Sequence record: PP920555.1
Reading direction: 5' to 3' (one strand)
Source: Escherichia phage SM_W22
DNA length: 44,245 nucleotides
This document shows positions 1,992 through 39,868 of the stretch, piece by piece. The stretch's first letter is position 1; each line of letters opens with the position of its first letter. The notes beneath the pieces were generated by a model. That model was not told the DNA's origin, ran no database searches, and saw only the letters and a program-made list of their open reading frames with translations. A program made the translations under genes and the position numbers.

Positions 1992-3512
1992 ATGACCGTT
2001 AACGTTGACAACCAGCACCCGCTCTATGCGCGCATCGCGCCAGAGTGGAAAATGATCCGTGACTGCGTAGCAGGGGAGCGCGCCGTGAAGGCGTGCGGCC
2101 CATTGTACCTGCCTCATCCCGCCAGTGGCGACAATACTGACCCGAAAGCACGGGCGCGGTATAAGGCGTACAAGCAACGCGCTGTATTCCTGAACGCCAC
2201 CGCCCGCACACTTAACGCGCTGTTAGGCGTTGCCTTTGCTAAACCGGTAAGTCTGGACCTTTCCGGGGCGATGGCTGACCTGATTGACGACGTAGACGGC
2301 AGCGGTATGCCTCTGCCGCAACTCCTGCGCGGTGCTATGTCGGAAGTGCTGCAATCAGGACGTGCGGGCTTTATGGTGGACTACGACCGCCAGGCTAACT
2401 TTGATGAACTGGGTAACGTAGTTCCGCAGACAGCCGCCGAGATGGCGTCACACCGCCCGCTTATACGCCTGTACACGGCAGAACAGATCATCAACTGGCG
2501 GCAGACCCACGGCGTCGATACGCTAATTGTGCTGAAGGAAACGGACGAAATCAGCACCGAAGACCCGGACGACTTCGCAAACCACGAAGTAACAATCTGG
2601 ACCGAGCTTCGCATGATTAATGGTGCGGCACACGCCCGCCGCTGGTACTACAACGCGGACACGTCCGAGGTGCAAATGGATTTGCCGCGTGGATTCACCC
2701 GCACCGACCTGGTGCCGCTGGTGGATGCCTCCGGTAATGCGCTTACACAACTTCCGTTTTGCTGGTGTGGTGCGGTGGACAACAACGCAACGCCTGACGC
2801 CGCTCCGCTGGCGGATATCGCGTCCATCAACATTAAGCACTACAACGCCGAAGCGGACGTCGCCGAGATTGCGCACATCGTGGGCCAACCTACCCTCGTT
2901 GCGACGGGATTGACCCAATCATGGGCTGACAAGAACCTGAAGGGCGGCATTGCCCTCGGTGCGACTAAGGGCGTTATCCTGGGCCAGAACATGGACGCTA
3001 AACTGATTCAGGCCGAGGAGCGCAACTTGTCTGTTGCGCTGTGTGAGCGTCGCGAATTGCAAATGGCTAAACTTGGCGCGGCCCTTGTCGAGAAGGGGAC
3101 CGCACCTAAGACGGCAACCGAGGCGGCCTACGATGCGCAGACTGATAACAGTATCCTGTCGCTTATCGCCGGTAACGTTGAGAAGGCTTTCAACCGTGCG
3201 CTGCAAATCGTCCAGCTATTCACGGGCGACACCGCCGACCAGCGTGTGACGCTGAATAAGTTCTACACCGAAATCACTGTTGATGCTCAGCTTATGACCG
3301 CGATGATGTCGGGGGTGCAGACTGGTACGGTCCGCCTGGCTGACTTCATCAAGTGGATGATGGCGCAGGGCGTCATAGACGACTCGCAAACCGTCGAGCA
3401 GGTGGAAGACGAATTGCGAAATCAGAATCCATTGCCTCAAATGTCCCCTGATGCGGTAGAATCTACCGAAGAAGACCCGGACAAGGTAGCGGACAATGGC
3501 GAAGACAGTTAA
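1992..3512 (+). CDS. Portal protein
   Basis: 506 aa ORF immediately after terL with acidic C-terminal tail; canonical gene order. Confidence 0.8.
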   Translation: MTVNVDNQHPLYARIAPEWKMIRDCVAGERAVKACGPLYLPHPASGDNTDPKARARYKAYKQRAVFLNATARTLNALLGVAFAKPVSLDLSGAMADLIDDVDGSGMPLPQLLRGAMSEVLQSGRAGFMVDYDRQANFDELGNVVPQTAAEMASHRPLIRLYTAEQIINWRQTHGVDTLIVLKETDEISTEDPDDFANHEVTIWTELRMINGAAHARRWYYNADTSEVQMDLPRGFTRTDLVPLVDASGNALTQLPFCWCGAVDNNATPDAAPLADIASINIKHYNAEADVAEIAHIVGQPTLVATGLTQSWADKNLKGGIALGATKGVILGQNMDAKLIQAEERNLSVALCERRELQMAKLGAALVEKGTAPKTATEAAYDAQTDNSILSLIAGNVEKAFNRALQIVQLFTGDTADQRVTLNKFYTEITVDAQLMTAMMSGVQTGTVRLADFIKWMMAQGVIDDSQTVEQVEDELRNQNPLPQMSPDAVESTEEDPDKVADNGEDS

Positions 3513-4599
3513 TCAATATTTGGCGGATCGAATGATTCGCCGTCACATCTTCACCCAGCGCCTGAGCAATGATCAGGCGCGGAGGGTGCTGGCTATGTGG
3601 GAGAAGTTCCGGCCCACTTTACTTGGTAAGCTGACCGAGTTACTTGATGGCAAAAAGTCCATGAGCAACAAGGCACTTACCTCACTGTTAACGCAACTCG
3701 ACAAGACCGTCAAAACGGAACTGCGCGCCGAGTTTAAAGTGCTGGCGGAGAGCCTTCAGGAGTTCGCCGACACCGAGGCTGATTATCTCGCGGACACACT
3801 AACGGCAGCGATCCAGCCCGCTGTCGCCGTACCCGCTGTTGAAGTAGTTGGCGTTGTTACCGGCGCGCAGATTGCAGCGACGGCAATGAAAAACCCGTTC
3901 CAGGGTAATACTATGATGCAATGGCCTGATTCCCTTTCCGAGTGGACCAGGACGCAGATCGGGAATCAGGTGCGCGCCGGATTCATCCAGGGCAAGCCAA
4001 CGATGGAAATTATCGCGGACGTGAGGCGCGCGCTCGGCGGTCGTAGTGCGCAAGCAATCTCAAGCGTTGTTAAGTCCGCGGTCAACCACTATGCGGCGAC
4101 CGCCCGCGAATTAATGGTAAAAGCTAATGACGATATTCTCGAAGGTCGCCAATGGTTGGCTACATTGGACACGCATACTTCTCCCATGTGCCAGCTACGC
4201 GATCGCCTGTTTTATCCGGTTGATGTTACTCCCGACACCAAAGGAAAACGCGGCGGGAAAATGGTGGCTGGGTCACAATATGGCGCTGGTCCGGGCAAGC
4301 TGCATTATTGCTGCCGTTCGACGGAGACGTGGAAAGTCAAAGGTATGGAAGATTGGCCCAGTGGTAAGCGTCCGGCACTGAAGGCTGACGCGGGCCGATT
4401 GCTGAGTGAGCAGGTCGACGCGCAGACTGATTTCTTCTCCTGGGTGCAGCGCCAGCCGCGCCATATCCTGGAAGAATTATATGGAGTGCAACGCGCCGAC
4501 CAGATTATGCGCGGCGTGAAAGTGCCGAAGATGTTTACCGATTCTGGCGAACTGATGACTATTGCACAGCTTAAAAACCGGGGGTTATGGCGTGATTAA
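3496..4599 (+). CDS. Head morphogenesis protein (SPP1 gp7 / Mu F-like)
   Basis: 367 aa ORF overlapping portal stop; position and size typical of minor head/morphogenesis protein. Confidence 0.6.
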   Translation: MAKTVNQYLADRMIRRHIFTQRLSNDQARRVLAMWEKFRPTLLGKLTELLDGKKSMSNKALTSLLTQLDKTVKTELRAEFKVLAESLQEFADTEADYLADTLTAAIQPAVAVPAVEVVGVVTGAQIAATAMKNPFQGNTMMQWPDSLSEWTRTQIGNQVRAGFIQGKPTMEIIADVRRALGGRSAQAISSVVKSAVNHYAATARELMVKANDDILEGRQWLATLDTHTSPMCQLRDRLFYPVDVTPDTKGKRGGKMVAGSQYGAGPGKLHYCCRSTETWKVKGMEDWPSGKRPALKADAGRLLSEQVDAQTDFFSWVQRQPRHILEELYGVQRADQIMRGVKVPKMFTDSGELMTIAQLKNRGLWRD

Positions 4600-4900
4600 A
4601 TATGCAGCGATCGGACTGGTTATCGGTCTGGTGGTAGGATTCTGGCAGGGTGATTCCTACCGCGCTGCCGTTGTGGCGAGAGCAGCGCAAGAAGCGCAAG
4701 CGAAAGCCCAACGGCAGCAAACTAAGGTTGTCGAGGGGGCAGTGCAGGAAGAACAGGCCCGCGATGTGGAATACCGGACTATCACGAAAGAGGTTGTGAA
4801 ATATGTTACGCGTCCTAACCGTCCTGATTGCAGTTTTGATGCTGAGCGCGTGCGGATCAAGCAAAGCGCCATTGATGCCGCTAACCGAGTCGGTCTATAG
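4562..4900 (+). CDS. i-spanin (Rz-like); probable true start at GTG near 4592
   Basis: N-terminal hydrophobic TM segment (AAIGLVIGLVVGF) followed by charged coiled-coil region (AAQEAQAKAQRQQ); contains embedded lipoprotein ORF in +1 frame. Confidence 0.6.
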   Translation: MHSLKTGGYGVIKYAAIGLVIGLVVGFWQGDSYRAAVVARAAQEAQAKAQRQQTKVVEGAVQEEQARDVEYRTITKEVVKYVTRPNRPDCSFDAERVRIKQSAIDAANRVGL

Positions 4901-5033
4901 ACCGCCTTGCACCTTTGAGAATGCCTCGGCAGATCCAGACGAAGACTTGCTGGTTGATGTTAAGAATATGGAGTGTGGTGCGAAGCTGCGGGCGCAAGTG
5001 CTGGAGTTGCAGAAAATAATTCGGGGGCCGTGA
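4803..5033 (+). CDS. o-spanin (Rz1-like outer membrane lipoprotein)
   Basis: Signal peptide with lipobox LSAC, proline-rich mature part with Cys; overlaps i-spanin in different frame. Confidence 0.65.
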   Translation: MLRVLTVLIAVLMLSACGSSKAPLMPLTESVYRPPCTFENASADPDEDLLVDVKNMECGAKLRAQVLELQKIIRGP

Positions 5034-5048
5034 TGGCCCCCTTTCGTT
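5023..5048. terminator. Bidirectional intrinsic terminator between convergent genes
   Basis: GGGGGCC-gtgat-GGCCCCC hairpin followed by TTTCGTT; sits between plus spanin stop and minus ORF stop. Confidence 0.7.
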
Positions 5049-5811
5049 AGCGCGGAATACCGCAAATCTCGTTTAGTGTTTTCACGTCCAGCGCCACCGC
5101 CGTGGACTTCGGCTTGTCCGGGTAAGGAATGAACTGTTCAACTTCGGGCCACGCCTTGATCAGCTTCTTATCTGTATTGTGCATATCCAGCACGCCGGTA
5201 ACAGTTAGTTTGAACGCGTCATACTTAGCACGCAACTCACGGCGGGCCTTGTCGTTACGGTCCAGGCGCTTACAGAAATCATGGTCCGCCGGGTAGTCTA
5301 TACGACCGCGTGGCATATATATCGGCAGCGCTTTCCCGTCGTCATCGACTTCGCACACTGACGCTAACAAAATTTCCTCATACCCAGGCACAATATCGCC
5401 GAGATCGGGAGACAGTTTATTCATGTATTTATACTCCCCGTATCCGCGATATACTCGGACTCGGTGTCCGTCTCCGCTCAATGACACGGTACGGACGTTT
5501 CCGCCTGCGTTGATTTCGAAAGTGGCGTCGTAAACGCTGCCTACACCATATGGGCTGTCGGCGTCATGTCTATACGTCGCCTTGTTGGTGTACACACAGA
5601 CGCCGTACATCTGCGACGGGTCACCGCCGATTGCTGCAATGCGCTCACGTAGCTCGGCGAACGAATGAATGCCTTCCGGCATACAGTCCATCGTAATGGC
5701 GTACGCCAGATTTCGAGAGTCCATCATGATTGATTTGGCTTCGGTCGCGATTTCGTGGTCGCGCAGGATGTTAGCCAGAATCTGGTTTTTAATGTCTTTT
5801 GTCAGTCTCAT
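5047..5811 (-). CDS. Hypothetical protein (moron, opposite orientation to structural genes)
   Basis: 254 aa ORF with protein-like composition on minus strand inside plus-strand late module; no motif recognised. Confidence 0.55.
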   Translation of the reverse strand: MRLTKDIKNQILANILRDHEIATEAKSIMMDSRNLAYAITMDCMPEGIHSFAELRERIAAIGGDPSQMYGVCVYTNKATYRHDADSPYGVGSVYDATFEINAGGNVRTVSLSGDGHRVRVYRGYGEYKYMNKLSPDLGDIVPGYEEILLASVCEVDDDGKALPIYMPRGRIDYPADHDFCKRLDRNDKARRELRAKYDAFKLTVTGVLDMHNTDKKLIKAWPEVEQFIPYPDKPKSTAVALDVKTLNEICGIPR

Positions 5812-5854
5812 TTTTGTGTCCTCGTTGTTGGGGCTTTCGCCCCTGTTGGTTTAG

Positions 5855-6373
5855 TTAAAGTGCTTCTAGAATCTCGTAAAACTTATTTGCCAGCGCTTGG
5901 CGGCGTTCGAATTTTTCAGTGATAACCAATTCCGGGCGGTTAAATAGCTTTGCGTGGGTGTTCCAATTGAGGATTTCCGTTTCCATTATTTTCTTCCTGT
6001 CCAGCGCTTGGCGGCGTTCGAATTTTTCAGTGATAACCAATTCCGGGCGGTTAAATAGCTTTGCGTGGGTGTTCCAATTGAGGATTTCCGTTTCCATTAT
6101 TTTCTTCCTGTTGTAGTCGGTGTTTTTGATGCTAAATTCCTTGATAGCGTCATTAAGAAAATCAGTCATACACTCAACGTCTGTTCTCTTAACTTCGAAC
6201 GTACGGGACTCGATTGGGCTATTTGTGCGAAGTACGACGACTCCGCCGTGGTAGGTGTCGACTACCATATACTTATAAGTCACCCCATCCCACTCCGGAT
6301 CGAAAGGGCGCCCAAATACGTCGTCGGCTTTCCACACTTTCTGGTACGGTGTTTCTTTAATTAATGTTGGCAT
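5855..6373 (-). CDS. Hypothetical protein with internal 37-aa tandem duplication (moron)
   Basis: Track ORF 5855..6826 trimmed to Met at 6373 (upstream part is antisense of scaffold gene region); repeat KKIMETEILNWNTHAKLFNRPELVITEKFERRQAL occurs twice. Confidence 0.55.
   Translation of the reverse strand: MPTLIKETPYQKVWKADDVFGRPFDPEWDGVTYKYMVVDTYHGGVVVLRTNSPIESRTFEVKRTDVECMTDFLNDAIKEFSIKNTDYNRKKIMETEILNWNTHAKLFNRPELVITEKFERRQALDRKKIMETEILNWNTHAKLFNRPELVITEKFERRQALANKFYEILEAL
5890..6111. repeat. Perfect tandem direct repeat, 2 x 111 bp, in frame within minus-strand ORF
   Basis: Bases 5890-6000 and 6001-6111 read identical base for base; duplication also visible in translated ORF. Confidence 0.9.
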
Positions 6374-6401
6374 CTTGTTTACCTTCATATCTCTGTTGGT
6401 G

Positions 6402-6424
6402 TGCAACCAATATATGCAACCAAT
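6402..6424. promoter_or_regulatory. Two direct copies of TGCAACCAAT motif in divergent intergenic region
   Basis: TGCAACCAAT at 6402-6411 and 6415-6424, between minus moron start (6373) and scaffold start (6528). Confidence 0.4.
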
Positions 6425-6527
6425 ACGAGGATTGCAAGCGAATTTTGCGATTATTTTTATCACTGATAATATTAGAGGCGTGAAGTCGAGCGGGTGGCCT
6501 GCTCTGCCACAATCCCAGGGGGATAGC

Positions 6528-7232
6528 ATGAAACTTACTAAAGCAGAATATGACGCGTTGCCGGAAGGTATGAAGGCGCTTTTTGTTGCCGATGGCGACG
6601 GGTATAAATCAACTTTCATGACCGCAGAAGAAGTACAGGCGGAAATCAAGGGTCTGAAAGACAATAACGCGAAGCTGGTGAGCGAGAAGAAAGCAGAAGC
6701 CGAACGCCGCGCCGAAGCTGAGCGCCTTGCGAAAGAGAAAGAGGAAGCCGCCGCGCGCAAAAATGGCGACCTCGAAGCGATCGATAAATCCTGGAAGGAT
6801 AAGTTTGCGAAACACGAAGCAGACACATCTGGAAAAATCGAAGCCTACCGCAAGCAGATCCACGATCTAACCATCGGCAGCGCTGCCAAAGACCTGGCAT
6901 CGAAGCTGTTCGGTAAGAATGCTGGCATCATGCAACGTCACGTTATGGACCGCCTGACGCTGGAAGACGGCGAAGACGGCAGCTTGAAAGTGCGTGTCTT
7001 GCAGGATGGCAAACCGTCCGCGCTGACTATGGAAGAGCTTGAAAAAGAGTTCCGTAATAACGCCGATTTTGCATCCGTCCTGGCTGGCACGCCAGCCGGT
7101 GGCGCGCCTAGCAAACCGACGCAGGTTGTCGAAGATGTGAAGTCGAAAATCACTATGGGCCATAGCTTCGGCATCACTGACCTTACGAAACAGGCAGGTG
7201 ATATCATCGCTAAGATGGGCGACGACGAGTAA
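6528..7232 (+). CDS. Scaffolding protein (putative)
   Basis: Track ORF trimmed to Met preceded by AGGGGGA; K/E/A-rich coiled-coil protein immediately upstream of major capsid gene. Confidence 0.6.
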   Translation: MKLTKAEYDALPEGMKALFVADGDGYKSTFMTAEEVQAEIKGLKDNNAKLVSEKKAEAERRAEAERLAKEKEEAAARKNGDLEAIDKSWKDKFAKHEADTSGKIEAYRKQIHDLTIGSAAKDLASKLFGKNAGIMQRHVMDRLTLEDGEDGSLKVRVLQDGKPSALTMEELEKEFRNNADFASVLAGTPAGGAPSKPTQVVEDVKSKITMGHSFGITDLTKQAGDIIAKMGDDE

Positions 7233-26403: not shown

Positions 26404-26854
26404 TCTGCGGGTCCAGTGCGTAAAGGGCAATCTTTTCGCCTTTGCCTCGGGTAAGTACGCGCTGGACCCGCGCCATCTCATCCTTGCCAAGAGGTCGGCA
26501 ATCGGAATAGTAGCTGCCGTTCGCACGCCACGCTACCAGCACCAGGTCTTTCCTGTCGATCGAAGACCGGCGACCCTTCGGGCGCACGTATTCCTCGGCC
26601 CGTTTGCAATGCTCGCGCAGGCCGTCGGCGGTGATGCGGTTTAGCGCAACGCTGGTTGTGTATCCGGTGCGCTGCATAATCCCCATCAATTCGAAAAGTA
26701 GTTCGAAGCGCTCCTCTATCTCCTGGCGCACTTTCTTCTCGCCTTCGTATAGCGCCTGGTTGGTGTCCGCCAGCGCGCTGACGCGTTCGACCTGTTCGCG
26801 GGCTTCGAGGCATTGCGCGGCCCAGTAATTTTTCTCTTCTTGTAAAATTTTCAT
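26390..26854 (-). CDS. Hypothetical protein (coiled-coil N-terminus)
   Basis: 154 aa ORF; no motif recognised. Confidence 0.5.
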   Translation of the reverse strand: MKILQEEKNYWAAQCLEAREQVERVSALADTNQALYEGEKKVRQEIEERFELLFELMGIMQRTGYTTSVALNRITADGLREHCKRAEEYVRPKGRRSSIDRKDLVLVAWRANGSYYSDCRPLGKDEMARVQRVLTRGKGEKIALYALDPQNDGE

Positions 26855-26908: not shown

Positions 26909-26935
26909 TGCAACCAATATGATTATGCAACCAAT
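26909..26935. promoter_or_regulatory. Two direct copies of TGCAACCAAT
   Basis: Copies at 26909-26918 and 26926-26935 in intergenic gap upstream of minus gene starting at 26854. Confidence 0.4.
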
Positions 26936-27253
26936 TTACGCATAAAAGTTCGGGTCGCGTGCGACGTCTACCAGGTAAAGGTTGCTTATGCGGTTGCCGT
27001 AGTGCCCTGGAGTGCGCTGGCGGCACACAACGGCGAAGCCTGGAGGGATTGTATTGCCCGTCTCAATAATCCACGCCACGCGTGCGCCAGACAGCGTCTT
27101 GCCGTTGTATTCGATACGTGTTCCGCCATCGGCGGTATTGAGGTTGCCAATTTTGCAGCCGGTGGACTTCAGACGAATGACGCCGGTTTTGCTGTCGTAG
27201 GAGAATAACTGGTTAGTCATTGCAACCGAAAAATCGATGGCTTCGAATGTCAT
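26936..27253 (-). CDS. HNH_3-like domain protein (possibly catalytically degenerate)
   Basis: GNRISNLYLV matches the NNRIENLRLV-type C-terminal HNH signature; expected upstream D-H replaced by R-Q. Confidence 0.4.
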   Translation of the reverse strand: MTFEAIDFSVAMTNQLFSYDSKTGVIRLKSTGCKIGNLNTADGGTRIEYNGKTLSGARVAWIIETGNTIPPGFAVVCRQRTPGHYGNRISNLYLVDVARDPNFYA

Positions 27254-29861: not shown

Positions 29862-30140
29862 CTATGCGACCAACTCAGCAACCAATAAATCACAGTCGGC
29901 TATGTTGTCAATAACGCGAACGTCGGCGCCGCGGCGAGCCATCCGCTCATGCTCTCGCACCTGGTGCGGCTTCGGTTTTCCTCCTGGGCGCTTCACTTCG
30001 ACGAATACTATGATGCCGTTGATGATGATAATCAGGTCGGGCGCACCTGCGCGCCCCTCCCATGCCACTTTGCGGCAGAATCCACCCACCGCTTTCACCC
30101 GACGCATCAGGTAGCGTTGAATCTTGCCTTCTGGAGTCAT
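29862..30140 (-). CDS. VRR-NUC domain nuclease
   Basis: GAPDLIII...VFVEVKRPGGKP...Q pattern of PD-(D/E)XK VRR-NUC domain; 92 aa. Confidence 0.65.
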   Translation of the reverse strand: MTPEGKIQRYLMRRVKAVGGFCRKVAWEGRAGAPDLIIIINGIIVFVEVKRPGGKPKPHQVREHERMARRGADVRVIDNIADCDLLVAELVA

Positions 30141-39654: not shown

Positions 39655-39804
39655 AATCCGGAGATTGCAAAATACACGGCAACATGATGCGAAGTGCGGT
39701 CGTCGATGAACTAGGCAACCAATGCGGGTTGTATTATGCTGAGTGAAAAATGCAGTTTGCAGCCACAGCAGATAGCGATCAACTTTTTCATACGCGTGAT
39801 TAAT

Positions 39805-39844
39805 ATTGGTTGCATCCGTGCCAGCACCCTGCTATATTGGTTGC
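39805..39844. promoter_or_regulatory. Two direct copies of ATTGGTTGCA upstream of 39869 gene
   Basis: Copies at 39805-39814 and 39835-39844, 30 bp apart; a further GCAACCAAT at 39714-39723. Confidence 0.4.
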
Positions 39845-39868
39845 ACATCAACATGAGGACTGAACAAA

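Follow-up and report, generated by a model that had tools for sequence, protein, structure and literature searches.

Why does Escherichia phage SM_W22 (PP920555.1) encode two genes on the minus strand between its spanin genes and its scaffold gene, within a late structural module? The 44,245-nucleotide stretch of DNA analyzed here, which we refer to as the window, is that of a Dhillonvirus (HK578-like siphovirus) coliphage. Its genes at this locus are ordered terminase, portal, head morphogenesis, i-spanin, o-spanin, the two minus-strand open reading frames (ORFs), scaffold, and major capsid. ORF A, or nmad5 (5047 to 5811), encodes a protein of 254 amino acids (aa), and ORF B (5855 to 6373) encodes one of 172 aa, followed by a stop codon. 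An initial annotation made from the sequence alone had described the pair as two unknown proteins of 254 and 173 aa forming an island of accessory cargo. The coordinates, the strand, and the first size were confirmed, and the second size was corrected to 172 aa. ORF A proved not to be unknown: it is a full-length member of the Nmad5 family (PF18757) and has already been studied (PMC11846954).

We favor, with a probability of about 0.6, the reading that the locus is a dispensable, nonstructural, opposite-strand slot of the moron type that carries modular cargo, with Nmad5 as an adaptor and ORF B as an effector. The accessory cargo proposal stands for the locus as a whole and for ORF B, given the variable content and the layout of a separate unit, and is not supported for nmad5 as a recent insertion. 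ORF A is a known and studied gene, and ORF B is a rare orphan with a fresh internal duplication. Both are real genes: ORF A because of its Pfam match (184.1 bits against a gathering cutoff of 27; E = 4.5e-54; profile positions 1 to 206 of 206 aligned to residues 1 to 253), and ORF B because of its protein-level homologues, which have 43 to 99% identity and come from several phage groups. ORF A also matches phrog_1965.

A modular slot with conserved flanks

A region of 2.8 kb around the locus matched 158 phage records, nearly all of them Escherichia or Shigella Dhillonvirus, with PTXU06 as the top full-length match (92.8%). This count, like that of 149 given below for nmad5, includes GenBank/RefSeq duplicates. 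Slot contents were compared among eleven relatives by annotation and local tblastn; GeorgBuechner was assessed by annotation only, Zar3M by collection searches only, and two uncultivated virus genomes (UViGs) separately.

In the order from promoter to terminator, the slot holds nmad5 only in Gluttony, SM_S22, and GeorgBuechner, and ORF B only in HK578. ORF B is followed by nmad5 in the window, PTXU06, Zar3M, and the two UViGs. A cassette of the gp52 type (104 aa) precedes nmad5 in welsh and SM_A8 and a remnant of nmad5 (aa 1 to 57) in JL1. A cassette of the SO-1 gp07 type (172 aa) precedes nmad5 in EP23 and stands by itself in SO-1 and TheodorHerzl. CHD5UKE2 carries the gp52 type, nmad5, and the gp07 type in that order, and Teewinot carries Nmad5 residues 1 to 38 only. 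These nine configurations share the promoter and leader, the linker, and the scaffold flank, and match spans in the wider sample fell into the same size classes. Across the compared relatives, scaffold is 97 to 100% identical and nmad5 82 to 95%. At least four cassettes can replace one another in the slot, all behind a single fixed, predicted promoter; upstream of nmad5, at least three alternatives, ORF B among them, would enter by recombination. The two genes are mutually independent in their occurrence, and the depositors of the SO-1 record labeled the occupant of its slot a “possible moron gene product.”

The SO-1 gp07 cassette (170 to 172 aa) lies at 851 to 1369, 851 to 1369, 1694 to 2206, and 853 to 1368 in four of the compared relative sequences. 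It has been annotated inconsistently, as a RusA-like resolvase or as a DNA polymerase III beta subunit. It matches a PHROGs family named RusA-like (E = 7e-56), and its Pfam match to the sliding-clamp central domain is subthreshold (24 bits against a cutoff of 27).

Linker, predicted promoter, and predicted terminator

Both flanking elements proposed in the initial annotation, a bidirectional terminator and a divergent, motif-bearing promoter region, were upheld. A two-way intrinsic terminator hairpin is predicted at 5023 to 5041 on both strands (GGGGGCC-N5-GGCCCCC), with 7 to 8 pairs, 7 of them G-C. Its fold energy is -19.0 kcal/mol on the plus strand (z = -1.95) and -17.3 kcal/mol on the minus strand (z = -2.87), and its T-rich tails extend to about 5048 and about 5013, respectively. 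In the deposited records of PTXU06 and HK578, the corresponding position carries a terminator annotation. The hairpin would serve both the spanin operon on the plus strand and the cassette on the minus strand.

At the other end, the divergent control region between the cassette and scaffold (6374 to 6527; 154 bp) is about 88% identical across relatives and is conserved whatever the cargo, as judged from nine phages with five different slot contents. It includes a predicted sigma-70-like promoter on the minus strand (6409 to 6437; TTGCAA-17-TATATT), which agrees with the consensus at 9 of 12 positions and whose -35 and -10 hexamers are both kept in relatives. This promoter overlaps, in its spacer, -10 hexamer, and start region, with two direct copies of the 11-mer TGCAACCAATA (6402 to 6425, minus strand), which reads TATTGGTTGCA in the transcriptional sense. 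Between ORF B and nmad5 lies a 43-bp linker (5812 to 5854, minus strand), identified by aligning the window, PTXU06, welsh, CHD5UKE2, and EP23 with the phages that carry nmad5 only. The same linker joins three unrelated types of upstream cassette to nmad5. It contains a hairpin, GGGGCGAAAGCCCC, at 5830 to 5843 (-11.5 kcal/mol; z = -4.2) that lacks a minus-strand U-tail.

The 11-mer TGCAACCAATA has 11 matches in the window versus 0.70 expected, a number reached in 0 of 100 shuffles. Sites were found at 6402 to 6425, 22513, 25392, 26909 to 26936, 36525, and 39804 to 39845, with weaker ones at 29877 and 40542. Most copies outside the slot occupy intergenic, promoter-like gaps in the early/replication half of the genome, often in pairs, and, read as TATTGGTTGCA, copies at five or more loci point to the gene that follows. 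The element is probably a phage-specific promoter or operator for operons of the early/replication region and for the nmad5 slot. Since the slot promoter and those promoters have copies of TGCAACCAATA in common, the cassette would seem to belong to the regulatory class of the early/replication operons, not to that of the head operon.

These elements suggest a course of expression. Host RNA polymerase would probably start near 6402 from the sigma-70-like promoter, which shares the TATTGGTTGCA element with early/replication-region promoters. Transcription would then pass through ORF B, the tailless linker hairpin, and nmad5, and stop at the 5023 to 5041 terminator. Cassettes of the ORF B type would enter by recombination upstream of the resident nmad5.

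The features that characterize morons are distributed unevenly over the locus. Candidates for a promoter and terminator of its own are the predicted sigma-70-like promoter and the strong putative two-way hairpin, both conserved. Presence or absence between conserved flanks is clear for ORF B and for the slot as a whole and weak for nmad5. Deviant base composition is found in ORF B (44.7% GC) and not in nmad5 (52.4%).

The adjoining genes bear names given in relatives: i-spanin (4562 to 4900), o-spanin (4803 to 5033, plus strand, with the lipobox LSAC), and scaffold, which starts with the ATG at 6528. Two allele groups of o-spanin were observed, about 95 to 100% and about 78 to 83% identical to that of the window; they are not correlated with slot content, which points to further mosaicism around the terminator. 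A small hairpin, GAGCGGG-N3-CCTGCTC, is conserved in the 5' leader of scaffold (6484 to 6527, plus strand), immediately before the GGGGGA ribosome-binding site; its energy is ordinary for its composition (z = -0.55).

Nmad5, a near genus-wide resident

Full-length nmad5 with at least 60% identity (tblastn) is present in 149 phage records, compared with about 158 that share the locus. A survey of presence and absence among relatives therefore gave a divided answer to the idea of an accessory island: ORF B is sporadic and the slot variable, whereas nmad5 is close to being a long-resident, near-universal tenant of the genus rather than a recent insertion, because about 149 of the approximately 158 related records have it at the same locus. 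Its GC content is near that of the genome (54.4%), with no compositional difference. Natural loss of nmad5, or reduction to a remnant, was found in HK578, SO-1, TheodorHerzl, JL1, and Teewinot. Because of these losses and of published deletions that are viable, nmad5 is dispensable.

The genetics of nmad5 in Dhillonvirus were described by Yamashita et al. (2025, Commun Biol; PMC11846954), who trace the Nmad naming to Iyer et al. (2013). Selection on E. coli expressing Tmn gave rise to nmad5 K216E in SM_A8 or K296E in SM_S22, and reversion of the escape change brought sensitivity back. A phage with nmad5 deleted was viable and still restricted by Tmn, and nmad5 was not clonable, apparently because of toxicity. 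Escape from Tmn by K216E is the sole recorded phenotype bearing on defense for either ORF (PMC11846954). A preprint on Tmn synergy contains no data on triggers, and neither ORF matched the PADLOC-DB defense models at an E value of 1 or less.

The window protein is 95% identical to that of SM_A8, has identical coordinates (5047 to 5811), and has lysine at position 216, that is, the wild-type, Tmn-sensitive state and not the K216E escape allele. In SM_S22 (PP627283.1), the nmad5 coding sequence (CDS; 749 to 1753) was deposited as 334 aa and overlaps the conserved promoter as well as the CDS of scaffold. Its 80-residue longer N terminus is an annotation artifact, the real gene having 254 aa, as in SM_A8; the published K296E is therefore the same change as K216E, and the truncated N terminus reported for SM_A8 is a difference of annotation.

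A second gene of the window touches on Tmn. The gene at 26411 to 26854 (minus strand), directly downstream of the motif pair at 26909/26926, is 76% identical to CDS0035 of SM_S22. In SM_A8, CDS0035 survives as a 36-aa remnant only, and it therefore corresponds to the published anti-Tmn gene (ORF35), which is distinct from both nmad5 and ORF B. Tmn inhibition by the window allele is not predictable, because close homologues differ in activity (PMC11846954).

Conservation within Nmad5 is confined to its two ends. The N-terminal R-L and C-terminal T-x-x-[KRQ]-L-x-x-x-W-P ... A-x-A-L ... L-N ... G-x-P motifs are all present in ORF A and do not vary among the Dhillonvirus, metagenomic, lambdoid (HK542), and Yuavirus members. 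The invariant residues (R2, L3, L16, A175, T213, L217, W221, P222, P229, A238, A240, L241, L246, N247, G251, and P253) are mostly hydrophobic or structural, and the conserved parts comprise the N-terminal helices and the C-terminal helix and tail only. K216 lies inside the conserved T-x-x-K-L-x-x-x-W-P-E motif; in the structure model it is placed, with good confidence, on a short helix in this most conserved motif, apparently at the surface. Within the genus, residues 1 to 20 and 181 to 254 are almost invariant and residues 50 to 130 vary, and the middle third is missing from the Yuavirus protein. The comparison with Gluttony gave 17 nonsynonymous versus 11 synonymous codon differences, and nonsynonymous differences are many among close relatives, concentrated in residues 50 to 130.

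Elsewhere, Nmad5 occurs in early or DNA metabolism regions and not in virion modules. In HK542, a 207-aa homologue of the C-terminal region (2692 to 3315 of the compared sequence) lies directly downstream of N in the pL operon. In lambda, small accessory genes such as ral lie near the first position after N in the pL operon. Homologues of the HK542 type were also found by tblastn in many Stx-converting phages. A Klebsiella phage has its homologue in a replication/recombination module, and in Yuavirus the gene is found beside thymidine-hypermodification genes. The full-length homologue of the Salmonella phage SPN3UB (2489 to 3121 of the compared sequence; 23% identity) is encoded two genes downstream of a gene annotated as queuine tRNA-ribosyltransferase, a second and chemically different DNA modification context for the family.

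We consider Nmad5 most likely to be a helical adaptor without catalytic activity that serves DNA metabolism or the conflict between phage and host, rather than a base-modifying enzyme, because its invariant residues are mostly hydrophobic or structural, its middle is missing in Yuavirus, and the partner enzymes are missing from the window.

ORF B, a sporadic cassette with an internal duplication

ORF B belongs to the family of HK578 gp06, for which five clusters, all of 130 to 137 aa, were recovered from 5.8 billion clustered proteins. When 1.8 billion representatives were searched in full with an HMMER profile, one credible distant member was added; three further matches look like low-complexity noise. 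The gene was present in 6 of the approximately 158 related records. It occupies this slot in PTXU06, Zar3M, and HK578 and accompanies nmad5 in two more Dhillonvirus genomes from IMG/VR. Beyond the genus, it lies downstream of the tail-tip gene in a group of Serratia phages, among small early genes in Erwinia phage Snitter, and in small-gene blocks of two metagenomic phages. Linkage of ORF B to nmad5 outside Dhillonvirus was considered and rejected, as nmad5 is not found near the homologues in Serratia, Erwinia, and metagenomic phages; a prophage origin was likewise rejected, as none of 5,426 complete E. coli genomes matched ORF B at the DNA level.

The statement in the initial annotation that neither protein has a recognizable motif fails for ORF A and holds for ORF B. 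ORF B had no match in Pfam, PHROGs, NCBIfam, or PADLOC; a sequence profile search of the PDB returned nothing of use, Foldseek returned coiled-coil matches only and no fold match in the PDB, and the matches in BFVD were two uncharacterized coliphage proteins only. The AlphaFold2 model (mean predicted local distance difference test [pLDDT] score of 81) has a four-stranded N-terminal beta domain followed by long helices.

With 44.7% GC, ORF B falls in the lowest 1% or so of the 500-bp windows of the genome. It is a sporadic, AT-rich, foreign-looking cargo, as expected of an acquired gene. Outside the repeat described below, 3 of 135 codons differ between the ORF B cassettes of the window and PTXU06 (99% identity), whereas 75 of 254 codons differ in the adjoining nmad5, which would indicate that the cassette was recently exchanged. 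Neither the ORF B sequence of the window nor its Nmad5 sequence was present in a collection of 15 billion proteins.

An exact tandem duplication spans 5890 to 6111 (2 x 111 bp; 100% match; 2.0 copies). It is in frame (37 codons) and repeats residues R91 to L127 of ORF B. No flanking or junction microhomology was found at the duplication, which is unique to the window. In the model, a helical hairpin is turned by the duplication into three helices, with pLDDT values of 62 to 91 along the repeat.

The most likely role of ORF B is that of a soluble effector in the cytoplasm, with the beta domain and the helical hairpin as the parts that would bind a partner; the helical region has been lengthened here by the recent 37-aa duplication.

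Alternative explanations

That the two proteins serve head assembly or the virion and merely happen to be encoded on the other strand has only their position in its favor, between the head morphogenesis/spanin genes and the scaffold/capsid genes. Against it stand the predicted promoter and terminator on the opposite strand, the absence of each gene from some viable relatives, the viable nmad5 deletion (PMC11846954), and the homologues elsewhere in early, replication, or small-gene regions. The comparison with structural and virion families in Pfam and PHROGs also came out as an accessory locus would lead one to expect, with no similarity for either protein. The natural and engineered deletions largely refute a structural role for both genes, and we consider it essentially excluded. 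A base-modifying role for Nmad5 is a further alternative. It may be a true DNA base modification enzyme, or an obligatory cofactor, that alters the phage DNA, and Tmn may sense or be affected by the modification, as put forward in PMC11846954. The family name, the position inside the M6-like Yuavirus thymidine-hypermodification cluster, the neighborhood in SPN3UB, and the change in Tmn outcome caused by an nmad5 point mutation (PMC11846954) all speak for such a role. The Dam- and Dcm-like methyltransferases encoded by the window phage, as judged by homology to relatives, keep the enzyme or cofactor reading alive. The Yuavirus partners (kinase, aGPT-Pplase, ThyA-like, and radical-SAM proteins), however, have no homologue in the window; when the proteins of the PAC5 cluster were compared with it by tblastn, Nmad5 alone was matched (E = 2e-11) and all others had E values of at least 0.036. 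Relatives are annotated with Dam- and Dcm-like methyltransferases only, and no thymidine-hypermodification enzyme (ThyA-like pyrimidine hydroxymethylase, nucleotide kinase, or aGPT-Pplase) is among their annotations. Neither conserved catalytic-type residues nor an enzyme fold was found for Nmad5, and a PDB sequence profile search gave nothing usable. The lambdoid homologues in the pL operon have no DNA modification gene annotated nearby. Restriction by Tmn of the nmad5 deletion phage is hard to square with sensing of a modification made by Nmad5; that K216E alters the outcome and deletion does not fits a changed interaction better than a lost enzymatic product. We therefore regard a modification role as doubtful.

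Another alternative concerns ORF B, which may be inactivated or without meaning in this phage, with the 111-bp duplication being an assembly or sequencing artifact or else a recent slip, neutral or deleterious, in a gene that is not needed. The complete identity of the repeat copies implies an event that is either very recent or artifactual, no other family member has the duplication, the window sequences of ORF B and Nmad5 are absent from the 15-billion-protein collection, and most Dhillonviruses lack ORF B entirely. On the other side, the duplication is exactly in frame and comprises a complete helix-loop unit, the model folds the added helix at the pLDDT values given above, and an exact repeat of 111 bp can be spanned by ordinary reads, so that erroneous collapse or expansion is not particularly probable. 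This explanation is possible, if rather unlikely. A more ambitious proposal goes beyond the moron-type slot that we prefer: the slot would be a plug-in expression site for effectors directed at DNA metabolism and host immunity, with Nmad5 a conserved, nonenzymatic adaptor paired with aGPT-Pplase in Yuavirus, the product of a TGT/DpdA-like gene in SPN3UB, and Dam or Dcm here, and with ORF B a new anti-defense or host takeover protein whose partner-binding hairpin was just duplicated under selection. We offer it as speculation that is improbable in this full form.

Several points weigh against the moron-type slot with an adaptor and an effector. The duplication may have a neutral or deleterious effect, or it may be an artifact of assembly. 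Nmad5 adjoins real DNA modification genes in two other phage groups, and with such neighbors and the Dam/Dcm-like genes it may act as a cofactor of modification. The structure model of Nmad5 is of mediocre quality (mean pLDDT, 67; middle, below 50), and the missing fold match is thus weak evidence against catalysis. Finally, the cassette promoter is a consensus match and the terminator an energy prediction.

Implications

The label “DNA modification enzyme” on Dhillonvirus nmad5 stems from the domain name alone; the partner enzymes are missing from the genome, and no catalytic signature is visible in the family. The slot can take at least four cargos or be emptied altogether, with promoter, leader, and linker fixed; this tolerance and fixed architecture make it a natural site for payload insertion in Dhillonvirus therapy candidates. 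With K216 in its Nmad5 and a 76% identical homologue of the anti-Tmn gene, the behavior of the window phage against Tmn is a testable prediction. ORF B is a cheap candidate for an anti-defense screen, and its duplication supplies a natural pair of alleles for comparison. The interest of the locus lies in the mismatch between the name and the evidence for Nmad5, in a reusable slot architecture, and in an orphan gene seen just after an in-frame duplication.

Comparison with known systems

The closest counterpart is the Nmad5 of SM_A8 and SM_S22 (PMC11846954), which is the same gene at the same locus, with K216 kept in the window. The position upstream of nmad5 is empty in SM_S22, holds the gp52 type in SM_A8, and holds ORF B in the window; phenotypes are known for SM_A8 and SM_S22, and the window is known from sequence alone. 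ORF B finds its counterparts in HK578 gp06 (YP_007112613) and PTXU06 gp18, members of its family with 91% and 99% identity, respectively, over the shared 135 residues and with the same slot and leader. Both are hypothetical proteins of 135 to 140 aa, whereas the window ORF B reaches 172 aa through the 37-aa repeat, and HK578, unlike the window, carries its homologue without nmad5.

In M6-like Pseudomonas phages (Yuavirus), the C-terminal 80 residues of Nmad5 are 38% identical to those of the window, and the T-x-x-K-L-x-x-x-W-P-E and A-x-A-L...L-N...G-x-P motifs are shared. The Yuavirus protein has 186 aa, is without the middle region, and is encoded beside aGPT-Pplase1, a kinase, and a ThyA-like gene, none of which is found in the window.

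The moron concept of Hendrix and colleagues reportedly describes a promoter-gene-terminator unit inserted between conserved genes of lambdoid phages. The locus studied here resembles lambdoid morons in being an apparently autonomous opposite-strand unit between conserved late genes, with variable content and, in ORF B, atypical composition. Prophages express classical morons, to the benefit of the lysogen. The window phage differs in that a lysogeny module is absent as far as the annotations of its relatives show, in that a single predicted promoter would serve stacked, exchangeable cassettes, and in that one of these, nmad5, has become nearly fixed.

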